Notes under the pieces: generated by a model
The model's input: only the letters and a program-made list of their open reading frames with translations
The model's database searches: none
What the model was told of the DNA's origin: nothing
Made by a program: the position numbers and the translations under genes
Shown here: piece after piece, positions 106 through 8,940 of the stretch
Layout of the letters: every line of letters starts with the position of its first letter
Position numbering within the stretch: the first letter of the stretch is position 1
Virus record (IMG/VR): IMGVR_UViG_3300021420_000021
Coordinates: 30,267-94,266 of that record
Source of the DNA: a virus
Reading direction: 5' to 3' (one strand)
Length of the DNA: 64,000 nt

Positions 106-498
106 GTTGGACAAGCTAAGATGGACGAACTCGTCTCGGTCGATTTGACCGAAGTTATCGAGTTGCCGTCTAGCGGAGTGCAATTCTTTCAGACTAACCT
201 AGTCACTCAAAGTAACAATTACAAGTCTGTTGCTGGACTTGTAGGTCTTCGGACTTACATTTTTGGCAGAGACGGCGTATTTGCTATCAATCTAGGTGCA
301 AAAGGCGACACTGGCTATGGTGATGGCGAGTGGCGGAATATAGAATGCAATATTATGCAGAACGTTGCACCGACCGTCGCGGACCCCGAAGGCCTCATAC
401 CGGGATGGACTTCTTACAGAGTTCATTTCACCACGAGCCTCGGACCCGATACTACGATTCGGCAGAGACAAATTGATGCCGCTTCAGCCATAAGCTAA
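103..498 (+). CDS. probable major capsid protein, C-terminal exon
   Basis: No SD before ATG 121, and the frame is open from ~94 after the intron-like sequence. The C-terminus (RTYIFGRDGVFAINL...ADPEGLIPGWTSYRVHF) resembles N4-gp56-like capsid ends, and the ORF precedes decoration-type genes. Confidence 0.55.
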   Translation, partial: PVGQAKMDELVSVDLTEVIELPSSGVQFFQTNLVTQSNNYKSVAGLVGLRTYIFGRDGVFAINLGAKGDTGYGDGEWRNIECNIMQNVAPTVADPEGLIPGWTSYRVHFTTSLGPDTTIRQRQIDAASAIS

Positions 499-3059: not shown

Positions 3060-3647
3060 ATGCCGCCTCTTTTTCCAAGTTCGCAGAACAGCTTAAATTA
3101 TACAACGGGCGTAGGAATTCCGGCCCGAGTTGCCCTTAGTGGGACCGCAGCCGGAGGTAATAGTGTGACACAGCAACAGTCCGCCACGATTGACGGAACT
3201 TCGTATGTTGTTCTTCAAATGCGTGGTCCTGAATACTATCTTCTGATGACTTTGCCGTCTGATACGTGTCAATTGAGTGCCGGGATTGTAGATGTCGCTG
3301 GCAATGCGAGCACGGTTGATGCGAGTAATACGTTTACTTATACATCGTGGAACGCGAGTTCGGTCGTATTATCGATGTCGAATACTGGAAGTGCATCAGG
3401 ATCGGAGTTCGTATCTTTTTCTGCCGCAAATATGGGTACAGGCTGGATGCCTTCGAATCTGGCATGGGAAAGTAAAGTTGTAACTATCTCTTCGTCTGGT
3501 TTGATTACTGCGAACGCAAAAGGCCATGCGGTAGTGGAGTGTCGCTACCCCTTAAGTAAAGCATCGAACAATCCCGTTACGAATGGTTTAAATACGACAG
3601 ACAACCCACAATTTATTGCGGCATTGCTTGTAATTCGAGTCAATTAA
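3060..3647 (+). CDS. Ig-like (Big_2-like) virion protein, third paralog
   Basis: TTGVG...VALSGT, DVAGN, VVTISSSGLITANAKGHAVV. Confidence 0.55.
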   Translation: MPPLFPSSQNSLNYTTGVGIPARVALSGTAAGGNSVTQQQSATIDGTSYVVLQMRGPEYYLLMTLPSDTCQLSAGIVDVAGNASTVDASNTFTYTSWNASSVVLSMSNTGSASGSEFVSFSAANMGTGWMPSNLAWESKVVTISSSGLITANAKGHAVVECRYPLSKASNNPVTNGLNTTDNPQFIAALLVIRVN

Positions 3648-3673
3648 TTATACATGATATAATAGGAGGAACT

Positions 3674-3991
3674 ATGTCTGATGATCGGAACTATATTGCT
3701 AGTTTAGAAGAGGCGCTCGAAGATATCACTGAAGATAATCTTAGATTGCGCAACACAAACAGAATTCTCCGGGCCGTAAATTCAGGACTTCGGTCGAAAC
3801 TTGAAATCGCGCATAAGAACGACGAAGAGTTTGTTTCGGCGTGTCAATGGGATGAAGAAATCGACGCTCGCGCCGCACAAATTGATTCAGAATCTGACTC
3901 GACAGGATATGTCGAGTATGTCGAAGAGAAATCTGACTATCCGCAAGGATTTCAAGAATATTGGGGAATTGGCAACACAAGTTATACGTAA
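3674..3991 (+). CDS. hypothetical coiled-coil acidic protein
   Basis: SD AGGGAG; TGATATAAT upstream; heptad-like N-terminal half. Confidence 0.6.
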   Translation: MSDDRNYIASLEEALEDITEDNLRLRNTNRILRAVNSGLRSKLEIAHKNDEEFVSACQWDEEIDARAAQIDSESDSTGYVEYVEEKSDYPQGFQEYWGIGNTSYT

Positions 3992-3994
3992 TTA

Positions 3995-4166
3995 AGTGAA
4001 CAAGGTTAAGAAAAAGTGGATTACTATTTCTTAGTCTAATCGGACGGACGGTCTAGAACGACCGCGAGATGTTAGTCGTTGTTGCGCCTGATCCGCGCAA
4101 AGAGACGCTGATTTCACTAGTGCAAGGGCTTCTCTGGGAGCCTGAACCGGAGGAGCACAAGCACTA
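3995..4166 (+). ncRNA. candidate two-domain structured RNA with complementary loops
   Basis: Closing helix 3995-4000/4113-4118; arms 4003-4037, 4049-4064 and 4071-4112; loops GGATT (4018-4022) and GATCC (4090-4094) are complementary; second hairpin domain 4118-4166. Confidence 0.55.
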
Positions 4167-4187
4167 CAATTTAAACGGAGGAGGAAA

Positions 4188-4667
4188 ATGAAGTTACTAA
4201 ACCGTATTAGAACTTGGTTGCTTTATAAGTTATGGAAGCCAAAGGATAAATCACCCGAAGAACTAGAGTTTGCGAGAGAAAAAGGTAAGATTTTAACTCA
4301 GCAAAAACAATGGGATGATCAAAGACATGTCGGATGTTCACACCTTAAAGGCGGGAATGTAGGGAACGTGTTTGGCGGCGATTTCAGTAAGTTTGCCCAA
4401 GGTTGGTATAACGGACAAAATGGGCAATACGCAGTAATCAAGCATCAGATGGCGAATGGCGATATTTATGTAAACTGTTTACGATGCGGTAAGAAGTGGA
4501 AAAAGCCAATAAGATCGTCATTTAAGAAAGAACAAGATTACTTAATAGCTCTTGCAGAGTACGAAACTGCTGTGAAGTTTCCTACGAATAATAGCATGTC
4601 TACATCGATTCAATTACGATTTTCTGACAATGGCGAAGCGCATCGTAAAGCGATAGAGAATAGTTAA
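4188..4667 (+). CDS. Zn-binding hypothetical protein (paralog of 5936..6577)
   Basis: CSHLKGG...QYAVIKHQM.NGDI.V.CLRCGK.W; strong SD GGAGGAGG. Confidence 0.75.
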   Translation: MKLLNRIRTWLLYKLWKPKDKSPEELEFAREKGKILTQQKQWDDQRHVGCSHLKGGNVGNVFGGDFSKFAQGWYNGQNGQYAVIKHQMANGDIYVNCLRCGKKWKKPIRSSFKKEQDYLIALAEYETAVKFPTNNSMSTSIQLRFSDNGEAHRKAIENS

Positions 4668-4693
4668 ATTTCGCAGTGTCATGAACTGTGAAC

Positions 4694-4736
4694 GGGCGAT
4701 AGCCTTCTACTATCGCCCACTCTTTAGAAGGGAGAG
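4694..4736 (+). promoter_or_regulatory. kissing-hairpin / pseudoknot element overlapping the SD (copy 2)
   Basis: Stem GGGCGATAG/CTATCGCCC; loop CCTTCTA is complementary to TAGAAGG (4725-4731), the loop of CTCTT/GAGAG. Confidence 0.75.
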
Positions 4737-4740
4737 AAGT

Positions 4741-5280
4741 ATGCGAATTGAAACAAACATAAGAAGCATTAAAGATTTATCCAACATGAAATTTGGTAGA
4801 TTGATACCGATTATGCCTATTGCAAAAGATAGGTTTAATAAGACGATATGGCTAATGTTGTGCGATTGCGGCAAGACAAAAGCTATAAACAGCGCAAATT
4901 TGAGTTCAAAACATACTCAGAGTTGCGGGTGTTTACGCGATGAGTGTCAGTCTGCGCTTAAACATGGTGCTAGTTGTCGCGGTAAGATAACGCCTGAGTA
5001 TCAAGCTTTTAGAGCGGCGAAAGAACGCTGTACTAACCCAAAGAATAAAGCATATAAATATTATGGCGGAAGAGGAATCGAGTTTCGTTTTGTTAGTTTT
5101 GAAGAGTTTTTTGCGGAGATAGGTTTACGACCCGACGCGATGTCGCTAGATAGGATTGAGGTAAACGGGCATTATGAAAAAGGGAATGTTCGTTGGGCGA
5201 CTCAAAGTCAGCAAGTACAAAATCGTAGATCACAGCCTGAAATTCTTTTACAGTATGCGGCAGCATTAGGAGGAGTGTGA
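4741..5280 (+). CDS. HNH homing endonuclease
   Basis: CDCG...SCGC; RC.NP...YYGGRGI...SLDRIEVNGHYEKGNVRWAT; start moved to the ATG after the SD. Confidence 0.85.
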   Translation: MRIETNIRSIKDLSNMKFGRLIPIMPIAKDRFNKTIWLMLCDCGKTKAINSANLSSKHTQSCGCLRDECQSALKHGASCRGKITPEYQAFRAAKERCTNPKNKAYKYYGGRGIEFRFVSFEEFFAEIGLRPDAMSLDRIEVNGHYEKGNVRWATQSQQVQNRRSQPEILLQYAAALGGV

Positions 5281-5951
5281 GTCAACCAACACAAGAGGAG
5301 ATTCAACGTCTTCAGGGAACACGGCTCAATACGGAGAAAGCACCGTGGCAGACGTATTCTGAGGAGTTGGATGTGAAGATGTCGCCAGAGTTAGCGGCAG
5401 AAGTTGCCGACTACAGCACGCGATATCACGACTCAGAATCTAGTAATCAGAATAAAGAAGAATTGGCCCGATGGCAAGAGCAGAATTATGACGCGATGGG
5501 CGAATATCGATGGGCAAGTCCAGAAGAATATGCCGATATTGAAGCTCGAATCGGACGAATTATGCATCACAGCGAATTCGTGACGCGATTGAAGAAGATC
5601 GGCGTTCGATGTGCGTTACGCGATCATCCGCAAACAGATAAATTGACTTTGCTTGTACAACGCGGAAATGATGTTTTAAAGCCATATGAAGTTGGATGTT
5701 GGATAAAGAATGGATTCGCGCCAGAATTTTCAGTCATGGGATTTGATGAGCATGGAGTTCCACTCGCAGAGCGTTACAGGGGTTGGCGCACCGCGATTCT
5801 TCAGCTTATTCTTAAACAAGTATTGACGGAAGAACAAGCGCATAAAGAATTTGGAAGTACAGATCGATGTTGTGCCGGGAGATATAATTCAATACTTCAC
5901 GGCATCAGGAATACAGTAGATAAAGAGGAGGAGCAATGTCAGACGAAGTAA
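5277..5951 (+). CDS. hypothetical protein (head cluster)
   Basis: 224 aa, SD AGGAG, overlaps both neighbours. Confidence 0.7.
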   Translation: MSQPTQEEIQRLQGTRLNTEKAPWQTYSEELDVKMSPELAAEVADYSTRYHDSESSNQNKEELARWQEQNYDAMGEYRWASPEEYADIEARIGRIMHHSEFVTRLKKIGVRCALRDHPQTDKLTLLVQRGNDVLKPYEVGCWIKNGFAPEFSVMGFDEHGVPLAERYRGWRTAILQLILKQVLTEEQAHKEFGSTDRCCAGRYNSILHGIRNTVDKEEEQCQTK

Positions 5952-6577
5952 AGAAACATTCTGCGACAGAAGAGTTGGCGCAGTTAGACTTACAGATTAA
6001 GCGCGAAGAACTTGAACAGTTGAAATTGTCAAGACAAGAGCGCGAATATTCGATCAAAGATTTGAAAGGAAGACTAGCCGAGCGCGACGTAAAAGAACTT
6101 CAGAAGAAAGAAGATCGTGAAGCGCAAGGCCGGACTTTCGCGCAGCAGAGAGGAACTGACGAAGCTCGTTGGAAGATTTGTACGCATAAAAAGGGCGGAA
6201 ACGTCAGTCAGCGCGATATGCGTGTTCTGAGTACAGGCGGAAACGCCGCGCAATACGCAGTTATGAAGCACCAGATGATTAATGGTGATATTTGGGTCCG
6301 TTGTTTGCGTTGCGGTAAAACTTGGTCGCCGCCGCTGAAATCGAAGTTCTATTTTGATAATCGCGGTAAGCAAGTTCCGGCGCATTCGGGCGAATTTAAC
6401 AAAGACCGTTTTGACGCAGCAGTTCTTGATTATCAACGCGCAGTTGCATTCGAAACGAATAATACGATGTCCGGATCGGTCCAAGTTCGGTTCTCCCGAT
6501 GGGACGAAAAGAGTCAGCAACTCGTTGATGCATCGAAAGACTACGCCGAATCGATTGCCGATACGACATTGCGCTAG
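5936..6577 (+). CDS. coiled-coil plus Zn-binding protein (paralog of 4188..4667)
   Basis: CTHKKGG...QYAVMKHQMINGDIWVRCLRCGKTW...FETNNTMS. Confidence 0.75.
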   Translation: MSDEVKKHSATEELAQLDLQIKREELEQLKLSRQEREYSIKDLKGRLAERDVKELQKKEDREAQGRTFAQQRGTDEARWKICTHKKGGNVSQRDMRVLSTGGNAAQYAVMKHQMINGDIWVRCLRCGKTWSPPLKSKFYFDNRGKQVPAHSGEFNKDRFDAAVLDYQRAVAFETNNTMSGSVQVRFSRWDEKSQQLVDASKDYAESIADTTLR

Positions 6578-6687: not shown

Positions 6688-7773
6688 ATGGCAACTTCAA
6701 ACAGCACTCTGACCTTGCAAGAATTAGTGGACGACTGTAAATCAATGGCCGATCTTGCGCCCGCGTTAGCGACAGGCGGATATTCTGATCAACCCGCGCT
6801 TTCAATCGCCAATGACGTGATGCAGAATATGGTCGCGGGCGGGCCTGAAGGTCAGCCGTTTAACTGGAAATGGAATCGCATGGTCGAGACTCCATTTTTC
6901 ATTAATTCGTGGCAGCAAGATTATTTCATCCCGAACCTTGTTACACTTGGATGGCTTGAAAGTTGCACCGCATCTTGTTTCTCTACGACACAATTTCCCA
7001 AGCCGATTTTACCGATTGAAGTAAAACGAGACTTGTTGATCGTTAGTTTACAGACTTCGCAAACTGCGAAGATTTGCTGGATGCAAAATGACACTATGTT
7101 GGCAGGAACTTGGGGGCAAACAGAACAAGCTTCAGCAACAGGATTGGCGAATCCGGGTCCGGGCGTTGTTATCACGAATCCGGCAAATCAGCCGTCAATG
7201 CCGATCAATCCTACGACACAGGTGAAAGACGCTTTTGGCAATTTGTGGGTTGTGACGACTTACGGGACTTGCGGCAGTTCGAATCCATTTGCGACGAATC
7301 TTAATCCAGCATTTCCGACATTGCAGAATCAAAGCATTGTATCGACTACAGTAAACGATGGAACTGTTGTTTGGACCGCAGTTAATCCGAAAGGTCAAGG
7401 ATTTCGAATCAATCCACTTCCCGGCCAAACCGGGCCAGTTTGGTTAATTCAACCAGTCGGCCAGAACCGAGTTCAAAGACTGACGAGTTACGGACAATTT
7501 CTTGATCCGATTCCAGATGATTTTTATACATTTTTCAAACAAGGATTTTTCGCCCAATGTTATCGCCGTTCGCCCGATCCAAAAGTCCGGGCGAAGTTCG
7601 AAATGGAATATCAGCTATGGCAAAAAGCATTAGTCAATGCCGTCAGACAAGGCGCACGAGAAATCGATGATTGGGGCTTTTATCCAACATCGAATGTCAT
7701 GGATGGAACTGGATACGGAGGTTGGGTTGGTGCAACGCCCGCACTACCGTATGGCCCCTGGCAAGGTTATTAG
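6688..7773 (+). CDS. head-tail adaptor / tail tubular A-like protein with carbohydrate-binding-like insert
   Basis: Position; PFNWKWN...QDY as in adaptor proteins; insert DAFGNLWVV...DGTVVWT; paralog of 7972. Confidence 0.55.
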   Translation: MATSNSTLTLQELVDDCKSMADLAPALATGGYSDQPALSIANDVMQNMVAGGPEGQPFNWKWNRMVETPFFINSWQQDYFIPNLVTLGWLESCTASCFSTTQFPKPILPIEVKRDLLIVSLQTSQTAKICWMQNDTMLAGTWGQTEQASATGLANPGPGVVITNPANQPSMPINPTTQVKDAFGNLWVVTTYGTCGSSNPFATNLNPAFPTLQNQSIVSTTVNDGTVVWTAVNPKGQGFRINPLPGQTGPVWLIQPVGQNRVQRLTSYGQFLDPIPDDFYTFFKQGFFAQCYRRSPDPKVRAKFEMEYQLWQKALVNAVRQGAREIDDWGFYPTSNVMDGTGYGGWVGATPALPYGPWQGY

Positions 7774-7975
7774 AATCAATAATTTACAGACAATTTCACT
7801 ATATTGTGTACAAAGATGTTGATCATGAGCATGAGAAACCCGGCACGCATCGTGGCATTCTTTGCGCATGGTGTAACACAGCACTCGGCAGATTAGAGCC
7901 GAATATGCAGAAAGTCTTAGAATATCTGGCCGAGTATGGAAAATACTACGAGCCTCCGCTAAAGGATTTAAATGC
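7774..7975 (+). pseudogene. truncated endonuclease VII remnant
   Basis: Only VDHEHE...HRGILCAWCNTALGRLE...LEYL remains; no N-terminal CxxC and no plausible start. Confidence 0.65.
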
Positions 7976-8940
7976 CCGCTTTGAGCACAATTACGCTAGA
8001 AATGACGATGGATTGGGCGAAACGCCTTAGTTTTAACCGCAACTTTGGAATCGGTAATTCTCTTGAACCCGCGCTTACGTCTGCAAACATGGTCGCTCAG
8101 ACGATTCTTTCGCCTCCATTTGACTTCTGGTGGAATTCTCAAGAGATAAGCTTTACGTGTTCGACAGCGCCTCCGGTCGCGAACATTACAAACGTCGCGA
8201 TTACAAGTAAAATTGTAACTCTGTTGATGATAAATACGTTTGTTCAGAATGATCAAGTTTTAATCGCGTCTTTAGTGACTGCGGCGTTTCTTAATGGCGC
8301 AGTATTGACTGTTTTGACGGCATCGCCAACACAGATTACGGCTTATTTTAATCATGCCGACTATGTTTCTGCCGCCGATACAGGGACTGCAACAAAAAGC
8401 ACGACTCAAGATTATACAGTCAATATCCCTAATTTTTCTCACATCGAACATGCGTCTGTATACGATATATTTACGAACAGTCAGACGACCGGAACTGTCG
8501 GCAAGAAGTGGTGGGAACTAGAAGTAAAGAATAATCTGTCTTTAGATTCTACTCTCGGTCGGCCTCAGTTTATCAATCCGCAATTTGAAGATGTTAATAG
8601 TAACGTTACATTTCGAATGATGCCTGCGCCGAGTCAGAATTACCCTGTCGCACTTCACGTTCAGTTAGCGCCGCCGTTGTTTACGAGTTTGAATCAAACA
8701 TGGTCGCCGCTTCCTGACTTTATGCAACACATTTATTCATGGGGTTTTTTAAGTCTGATGTGGGCCTTTGCGGATGATCCGCGTGTTGGTTTCGCGAATC
8801 AAAAATTTACATCTAGTCTGCTCGCCCGCGCAGATGGGCTATCTCAAGAAGAACGCGACACGTTTCTCAACAATTGGAATATGTTGACTGGAACACAGCA
8901 ACAACAACGAGCACAAGGAACGCAGATGCGAGGTATGTAG
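7972..8940 (+). CDS. second adaptor / tail tubular A-like paralog
   Basis: STITL..., PAL..AN, PFDFWWN, QDY and PD motifs shared with 6688. Confidence 0.55.
   Translation: MPALSTITLEMTMDWAKRLSFNRNFGIGNSLEPALTSANMVAQTILSPPFDFWWNSQEISFTCSTAPPVANITNVAITSKIVTLLMINTFVQNDQVLIASLVTAAFLNGAVLTVLTASPTQITAYFNHADYVSAADTGTATKSTTQDYTVNIPNFSHIEHASVYDIFTNSQTTGTVGKKWWELEVKNNLSLDSTLGRPQFINPQFEDVNSNVTFRMMPAPSQNYPVALHVQLAPPLFTSLNQTWSPLPDFMQHIYSWGFLSLMWAFADDPRVGFANQKFTSSLLARADGLSQEERDTFLNNWNMLTGTQQQQRAQGTQMRGM

Follow-up and report, generated by a model that had tools for sequence, protein, structure and literature searches.

The analyzed window is a 64,000-nucleotide (nt) stretch of viral DNA, corresponding to bases 30267-94266 of the 94,266-base-pair (bp) IMG/VR virus record IMGVR_UViG_3300021420_000021. 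In its late structural operon a 196-nt gap separates two plus-strand open reading frames (ORFs), referred to here as F3 (3674-3991) and F0-short (4188-4667). Comparative evidence indicates that window positions 3995-4166 encode a plus-strand structured RNA that is part of the late structural mRNA of a podophage from soil, and this RNA is the subject of the present analysis. Genes for the large terminase (TerL), an SU10-type portal, and the major head protein are located upstream of the locus; the RNA stands between a capsid/decoration/F3 block and a connector/tail block. F3 encodes a coiled-coil-like protein of 105 residues and, by synteny and alignment, is always upstream of the RNA. On the 3' side lies a plus-strand cassette (4188-5280) that comprises F0-short, coding for a Zn-finger-like Cys/His protein, and an HNH endonuclease gene (4681-5280); this cassette is missing from L163 and L164, the closest related loci. 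It is followed on the plus strand by F1 (5277-5951, 224 residues), the ancestral gene 3' of the RNA, and by a longer F0 paralog (5936-6577), after which come two related large ORFs, F5 (6688-7773 and 7972-8940).

The plus strand of region 3992-4190 folds in RNAfold with an energy of -61.6 kcal/mol (z = -3.0), and none of 200 shuffled sequences was as stable; the minus strand of the same region gave z = -2.4. The minimum-energy structure has the two-domain architecture proposed in a first-pass annotation of this DNA, with a multibranched domain I followed by domain II, a long hairpin (4118-4166). The sequence elements listed in that annotation are also exact: GGATT at 4018-4022, GATCC at 4090-4094, the pairing of GCTTCTCTGG (4128-4137) with CCGGAGGAGC (4147-4156), and the exact repetition of CGGAGGAG (4148-4155) at 4176-4183, ahead of the ATG at 4188. 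Domain I is closed by helix H0, in which AGUGAA (3995-4000) pairs with UUCACU (4113-4118). Hairpin P1 (4007-4033) has the core AGUG (4015-4018)-GAU (4019-4021)-UACU (4022-4025), extended by UAAGAAA/UUUCUUA. Hairpin A (4039-4070) consists of outer pairs 4039-4040/4069-4070, a GA-rich 4x4 internal loop (4041-4044/4065-4068), and a stem 4045-4050/4059-4064 that carries the 8-nt loop A, G-UCUAGA-A (4051-4058), with a palindrome at 4052-4057. Hairpin B (4071-4112) is formed by pairs 4071-4075/4108-4112, 4078-4080/4104-4106, 4082-4085/4097-4100, and 4086-4087/4095-4096, and ends in the 7-nt loop B, CUGAUCC (4088-4094), with a GAUC core. In domain II, the outer stem UAGUGC (4118-4123)/GCACUA (4161-4166) encloses the core GCUUCUCUGG (4128-4137)/CCGGAGGAGC (4147-4156); its 5' arm is CU-rich and resembles an anti-Shine-Dalgarno (anti-SD) sequence, and its 3' arm is GA-rich and resembles a Shine-Dalgarno (SD) sequence.

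Homologs of F0 led to 160 related loci in viral and metagenome contigs, and further loci were obtained via F1. Querying viral contigs with the Zn-finger protein as a single sequence had returned nothing; the alignment-based search was successful. Scanning the loci by nhmmer with the gap sequence yielded one copy per locus, always on the gene strand, intergenic and directly 3' of F3; these copies are located 0.9-1.7 kb upstream of the F0 gene and do not adjoin it. In an alignment of 27 sequences (A3), RNAalifold found 22 consensus pairs, 20 of them with compensatory double changes. The covariance model built from A3 detected the element in 79 loci in total, hereafter group 1, on the plus strand, in one copy each and after F3; the genome of the window itself holds a single copy. 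In the model alignment of 41 sequences (A6), 91.4% of helix cells are paired, compared with 65.9% after shuffling and 35-43% when the partners are slid, and double changes are seen at 29 of the 33 pairs. The helix cells contain 178 G-U versus 24 A-C combinations, which points to selection on the plus-strand RNA and not on the DNA. The structural conservation in relatives that the first-pass annotation had named as a test is thus present, and the folded RNA is confirmed as real, far beyond chance. The alignments show a domain I multi-way junction (H0, the GAU-triloop hairpin P1, hairpins A and B) together with domain II, kept by compensatory evolution in 79 loci.

The individual helices differ in how they vary. 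P1 has the family consensus GGUG-GAU-UACC, and its helix 3-7/11-15 carries double changes in four of five pairs (GGCG/UGCC, GCUG/UAGC, AUCUG/UAGGU). Covariation is observed at all eight stem pairs of hairpin A, and double changes at 13 of the 14 pairs of hairpin B. H0 measures 5-6 bp at a constant position in the subgroup that includes the window (variants GUGGA/UCCAC, UCGAA/UUCGA, GCAAA/UUUGC) and 8-10 bp, UUUGAUGC/GCAUCAAA, in the subgroup whose F3 frame overlaps the RNA (compensatory variants GAUGU/ACAUC, GGUGC/GCACY). Comparison of the upstream and downstream flanks by RNAduplex gave weak z-scores (mean -0.49), and a helix-length test reached significance for 12 of 38 sequences, chiefly from the F3-overlap subgroup. 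H0 is only moderately supported for the window subgroup. Outside the family, no Rfam model shows similarity to the element, either for window region 3500-4700 at E <= 10 or for four relatives at E <= 0.1, so that the Rfam match sought by the first-pass annotation did not materialize. A tRNA-like cloverleaf was rejected, because its dimensions and loops do not agree with those of the element and ARAGORN predicts no tRNA or tmRNA gene (0 genes) anywhere in the window. There is a single exact occurrence of the core motif GTGGATTAC in the window, along with four one-mismatch matches, a number below the chance expectation; this rules it out as a repeated promoter.

The carriers of group 1 are podophages of Acidobacteriota with genomes of 90-100 kb. 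A second variant, group 2, was found at the same site and with the same plan in 111 further loci (42 distinct sequences). Its P1 is the near-invariant GGTGGATTACC, with a few variants of one or two bases among the 42 distinct sequences, and is followed by two long hairpins that differ from those of group 1. The apical loops of both again carry palindromes, which vary from phage to phage. The first of these hairpins has GGCC, GCGC, UGUACA, ACGCGU, CGUACG, and UGCGCA; the second has the loop 8-mers UUGGCCAA, UUAGCUAA, CUUUAAAG, UUGUACAA, CUUGCAAG, UCGCGCGA, and CUCAUGAG. The shuffle null for these group 2 loop palindromes is weak, because the shuffled segments include stem bases. One member is Tunturi_3 (PP885686), a cultured Tunturiibacter phage, in which the group 2 variant occupies the 216-nt gap between gp8 and gp9. 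Tunturi_3 is a 97.6-kb podovirus with an Acidobacteriota host (PMC11924767). In a blastn search of GenBank phages, the sole match was a 77-bp segment within the Zn-finger gene, to this same phage. Both groups together account for 190 of the 241 fetched loci, the rest being mostly short contigs. A scan of bacterial genomes yielded only two contigs of metagenome-assembled genomes and no evidence for prophage copies.

The most distinctive feature of the family is the behavior of its loops. The central six bases of loop A are palindromic in 40 of 41 sequences, the exception being the near-palindrome GCUAGA, and eleven hexamers occur: UCUAGA, UGUACA, UGGCCA, GUUAAC, CGUACG, CUUAAG, GUCGAC, UUGCAA, UUCGAA, UACGUA, and UCGCGA. 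The column pairs 45-50 (UA/GC/CG), 46-49 (CG/UA/GC/AU), and 47-48 (UA/CG/GC) are complementary in 99.2% of cases in A6, and the G and A that flank the palindrome form a conserved mismatch. Since the two innermost pairs are impossible within one hairpin loop, the complementarity has to be one between molecules. The same argument from covariation of adjacent loop bases was applied to L9.3 of OLE and L21a of GOLLD, where it was validated by cryo-EM (Kretsch et al., 2025; PMC12286853). Loop A has the hallmarks of a dimerization initiation site (DIS), namely a palindrome with unpaired flanking purines and covariation that preserves the palindrome, and group 2 is similar in this respect. In loop B the core columns 84-87/85-86 are self-complementary (GAUC), and the hexamer variants UGAUCA, UAAUUA, UCAUGA, and UAGCUA are found. 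This covariation shows the loops to be under selection for self-complementarity. By nearest-neighbor estimates, an extended homodimer of hairpin A reaches -23.0 kcal/mol compared with -15.0 kcal/mol for two monomers, and that of hairpin B -35.8 compared with -28.8 kcal/mol. Loops A and B each being self-complementary, at least two copies of the RNA probably join by symmetric kissing loops.

A multimerizing RNA had also been proposed in the first-pass annotation, with a different contact. The self-complementary, covarying loops of hairpins A and B speak for multimerization as such; the specific GGATT:GATCC loop-loop pairing lacks such support, as it shows one double change and is unpaired in 5-11 of 27 sequences at four of six pairs. 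GGAUU is the P1 triloop with its closing bases, and GAUCC belongs to loop B. In the longer form GGAUUA:UGAUCC, 81% of cells are paired and most members are complementary, and pairing is lost whenever loop B changes. GGAUU:GAUCC pairing is therefore not supported by covariation, although it may occur in the majority loop type.

The loop A hexamer of the window belongs to a class of words that this genome contains rarely. Palindromic hexamers are depleted genome-wide (1138 observed, 1528 expected), and the depletion is uneven: GTCGAC occurs 0 times, GGATCC once, CTTAAG twice, CGTACG 3 times, and TCTAGA 6 times, with 18-28 expected for each. CTAG occurs 96 times and GATC 433 times. This pattern suggests avoidance of restriction sites. 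TCTAGA, with 27.7 occurrences expected, is yet retained in loop A.

Domain II was surveyed in 27 group 1 members whose downstream start codon was located by script; two of 29 were not folded. A stable 3' hairpin is present in all 27, with energies of -20 to -38 kcal/mol except in L011 (-9.5 kcal/mol), and its arms covary, for instance GGCUUCUCC/GGAGAAGCC, GGUUCCCCCG/CGGGGGAGCC, and GGACGCCU/AGGCGUCC. Roughly half of group 1, L163 and L164 among them, use the 3' arm itself as the SD of the following gene, with the start codon at the foot of the hairpin. This placement speaks for a leader role, in which the fold would throttle F1. Domain II does not qualify as an intrinsic terminator: the hairpin is followed by ACAAGCAC, and no terminator was found in 3992-4187. 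A scan of the same gap for promoters and terminators gave no site, and the distance from the F3 stop codon (3991) to H0 (3995) leaves no space for a promoter in the window. Canonical intrinsic terminators (a GC stem and six T) do occur in two group 2 loci, L012 (2900-2917) and L014 (2817-2832), between F3 and the RNA and about 30 nt before P1. Their position directly upstream of the element puts it at the head of the downstream expression unit.

Two further resemblances to the translation machinery were considered. UGGAUUACC (4016-4026) is one base off UGGAUCACC, a segment at the 3' end of bacterial 16S rRNA. The UGAUCC of loop B (4088-4094) is complementary to GGAUCA, the 16S segment that immediately precedes the anti-SD, and CUCC-type, anti-SD-like runs are present in the 5' arm of domain II; these resemblances may be coincidental. 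The idea that UGGAUUACC mimics the 3' end of 16S rRNA, or that loop B acts through its complementarity to GGAUCA, was rejected, because the order of the pieces is wrong and not all members show the match.

The downstream side of the element in the window is best understood by comparison with L163 and L164, whose F1 proteins are 91% identical to that of the window. In these loci the RNA abuts F1, with neither Zn-finger nor HNH genes between them. The hairpin of L163 reads GGAGGAGC-AUG-AGCAC and opens F1; at the same place (4149-4163) the window has GGAGGAGC-ACA-AGCAC, a fossil of the ribosome-binding site and start of F1. The SD with the first codons of F1 is found three times in the window (4147-4190 and 5260-5290), as (i) the hairpin fossil, with ATG changed to ACA, (ii) the Zn-finger copy, where the exact repeat of CGGAGGAG provides the working SD CGGAGGAGG together with ATG 4188 (4176-4190), and (iii) the F1 copy with a GTG start, its SD at about 5267. 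The closest relatives hold a single copy (L163:2480-2520). One site there versus three in the window indicates that the Zn-finger and HNH genes were inserted at the start of F1. The repeats are interpreted as a target-site duplication caused by entry of the cassette at the F1 start, with a fossil site remaining in the hairpin.

This history changes the meaning of two proposals of the first-pass annotation. The repeated SD had been read as a switch in which the 5' arm of domain II moves onto the second copy; the repeat appears to be an insertion scar and not an evolved switch. The duplicate SD could pair with the 5' arm, but as a by-product of the insertion. The RNA had also been described as a possible leader for the Zn-finger gene. 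The leader part agrees with the roughly one half of relatives in which the 3' arm provides the SD of the following gene, but ancestrally that gene is F1 and not the Zn-finger gene. Homing-endonuclease genes of the HNH and EndoVII types (cluster F4) also stand directly 3' of the RNA in L077, L078, L011, and L159, and in the window such genes are located at 582-1220 and 4681-5280. The junction of the RNA with F1 has the appearance of an insertion hotspot for genes of mobile nucleases.

The best overall explanation of these data, to which we assign a probability of roughly one half, is a self-associating RNA that acts as a leader of the downstream block. Of its parts, action in cis as a leader of the connector/tail block is a close call that falls just short of even. 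Contacts of loop A with A' and of loop B with B' on the same partner would give a dimer, and on different partners a chain. Ancestrally, domain II would have supplied the ribosome-binding site of F1 through its 3' arm, with the start codon at the hairpin foot; the fold would throttle translation of F1 and possibly also influence mRNA decay. Throttling of F1 would fix how much downstream protein is made relative to capsid protein, and self-association would make the throttle depend on the amount of late mRNA. In the window, with the cassette at the F1 start, the hairpin keeps a dead site, and the free duplicate SD serves the inserted gene. A more specific and rather doubtful version is that this small phage RNA (about 125-170 nt) self-assembles into dimers or chains within the late mRNA, either as a dosage sensor for connector/tail versus capsid protein or as a component of virion assembly.

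Several observations weigh against a self-associating leader. The other half or so of group 1, including the window, L055, L102, L070, and others, has a free SD 20-30 nt further 3', and in group 2 the working SD lies in a small hairpin loop and not in a hairpin stem; with the SD outside the stem in these members, its sequestration is not universal. No alternative, switch-like pairing for the anti-SD arm was noticed by eye, and no systematic search for one was made. Self-association has difficulties of its own. The family register of hairpin A carries an A-A mismatch in the window copy, whose lowest-energy register, CGGUC/GACCG with the loop UAGAAC, sequesters two palindrome bases. In most members only the GAUC core of loop B is palindromic, the loop is likewise imperfect in the UUGCUA subgroup, and kisses of six AU-rich base pairs are weak by calculation (-3 to -9 kcal/mol). 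Finally, Pfam and PHROGs return no match for F3, F0, F1, or F5.

Another scenario is a stand-alone stable RNA, cut from the late mRNA and acting in trans or as a structural or assembly part (a particle, scaffold, or decoy), whose link to the ribosome-binding site is incidental. Two self-complementary loops per molecule permit chains or rings, and phage RNAs that form homo-oligomers, ROOL and GOLLD, are known (PMC12286853). The core is intact in the window and in L082 despite the replaced downstream gene, and the near-invariant P1 sequence of group 2 resembles a protein or processing site. However, no promoter or terminator of its own was found, a length of 125-170 nt is small beside known cage-forming RNAs, and in many relatives its 5' third doubles as coding sequence for the F3 tail, which would be odd for a stable RNA gene. 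We consider this scenario rather unlikely.

A shade less probable is a purely cis-regulatory leader, such as a protein operator or a ligand or temperature switch, without RNA self-association and with palindromic loops meant for another partner. The element does have a fixed position directly ahead of the next ORF, with the SD in a stem or a displayed loop in all variants; it has conserved unpaired bases (the GA-rich internal loop, CUGAUCC, and the GAU triloop), and the Cys/His F0 paralogs are always near it. The loops are the main objection, because a protein or ligand site should keep its bases, and not swap eleven unrelated hexamers while preserving self-complementarity alone. The downstream gene also varies among relatives, and no conserved alternative pairing was noticed by eye, with no systematic search made.

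A self-cleaving ribozyme or a dedicated RNase processing site could part the highly expressed capsid block from the connector/tail block. The junction-type fold, the conserved unpaired nucleotides, and the position at an operon boundary, beside terminators in some relatives, would agree with this, and dimeric ribozymes exist. It is nevertheless improbable: no Rfam ribozyme matched even at E <= 10, no candidate cleavage site was identified, and the helices are too short and too interrupted for a classical RNase III site. Least probable is a signal at the DNA level, whether palindromic sites for a dimeric protein, a hotspot of homing or recombination, or a signal for replication or packaging. 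Hexamer palindromes are typical of DNA-binding protein sites, and homing-endonuclease genes are often inserted beside the element. Against such a signal, the 178 G-U versus 24 A-C helix cells make the constraint strand-specific at the RNA level, stem sequences are free to differ from phage to phage, the G and A on either side of the palindrome form a conserved mismatch, and GTGGATTAC, present once in the window, has four one-mismatch matches there, fewer than chance.

The genes that surround the RNA show a number of further features. In many relatives the F3 frame continues across H0, P1, and the 5' side of hairpin A, which yields a protein tail ...GGLPEPGTQ... (L016:3463-3744, L062:1772-2260, L055, L139, and others), and in several of them, for example L016 and L062, the F3 stop codon, UAG or UAA, is within the palindromic loop A. 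In the window and in L043, F3 ends before the element and has an unrelated longer tail. A stop-codon readthrough or frameshift signal for F3 was considered and dropped, the overlap of F3 with the RNA being confined to a subgroup. The F0 family is represented by two paralogs of about 160 and 220 residues in some phages (4188-4667 and 5936-6577 in the window) and by one in others; its invariant residues are C50, H52, K54-G-G, H86, C97, R99, C100, G101, and W104. No Pfam, PHROG, or PDB relative of this Cys/His family was found, the PDB profile searches giving only spurious designed tetratricopeptide-repeat matches for F0 and nothing for F1. The AlphaFold model of F1 is poor (predicted local distance difference test score of 63), and an ESM Atlas search with the neighboring proteins gave no usable matches. 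The major head gene is split by a LAGLIDADG endonuclease gene (G000:C1:28818-30764; L162:15818-17350; window 121-498), and the N-terminal part of the split protein matches PHROG 1357 at positions 24-223 of 356.

The element appears to be previously undescribed, has no Rfam family, and is represented in about 190 related soil-phage contigs from a widespread clade of Acidobacteriota phages of peat and tundra soils. To our knowledge, natural homo-oligomeric RNAs are rare, and the few bacterial and phage examples (OLE, ROOL, and GOLLD) are huge and of unknown function. The small size of the present RNA would make synthesis, mutagenesis, probing, and cryo-EM easy, and the adjoining translation start offers a possible read-out. 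The variant in the cultured pair of Tunturi_3 and Tunturiibacter psychrotolerans X5P2 makes the purpose of RNA self-association directly testable. If the proposed self-association is true, the element would be the first natural RNA forming homo-oligomers that is compact, amenable to genetics, and equipped with a readable output. In addition, the locus appears to record the insertion of a homing-endonuclease cassette at a structured ribosome-binding site, with a fossil copy left behind.

Candidate structured RNAs in phage intergenic regions were previously collected from IMG/VR by covariation, 8,495 of them unnamed (Fremin, Bhatt and Kyrpides, 2023; PMC10690425). The element may be among these unnamed candidates; the main text of that paper contains no description of its family or of the palindromic-loop signature. 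The phi29 packaging RNA (pRNA), to which the first-pass annotation had compared the element, is likewise phage-encoded, of similar length, and multimerizes by loop-loop contacts, as is predicted here. In contrast, pRNA uses two different, mutually complementary loops and forms a prohead ring in phi29-like phages of about 20 kb. Membership in the pRNA family (RF00044) does not hold for the element, given the absence of an Rfam match, loops that are self- and not cross-complementary, and a 94-kb genome with a classical TerL and an SU10-like portal.

SD-sequestering leaders, such as translational riboswitch platforms and RNA thermometers, resemble about half of the relatives, in which a CU-rich anti-SD arm pairs with the GGAGG ahead of the following gene, whose start codon is at the hairpin foot; the difference is that sequestration is lost in the window and absent in group 2. 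Another similar design is the DIS of HIV-1, a short stem with the apical loop AA-GCGCGC-A, where a 6-nt palindrome is flanked by unpaired purines and serves the dimerization and packaging of an RNA virus genome. Loop A, G-NNNNNN-A, follows the same scheme, and group 2 even has 2+6+1 loops such as UG-UGUACA-G. Unlike the HIV-1 DIS, the present element is part of a DNA phage mRNA and has a second self-complementary loop.

A close parallel is provided by OLE, GOLLD, and ROOL (Kretsch et al., 2025; PMC12286853). These are stand-alone genes of 500-800 nt or more, often near tRNA islands, whereas the element described here has about 125-170 nt, resides inside a structural operon, abuts a ribosome-binding site, and shares no sequence or model similarity with them; its oligomers are predicted from sequence. 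GOLLD and ROOL are, like this element, encoded by phages or prophages. In all of them the loops switch among palindromes, with covariation of adjacent bases that is explicable only between molecules. Thus, the element bears the evolutionary signature of symmetric kissing loops seen in OLE and GOLLD, and displays it over a larger number of hexamer variants.

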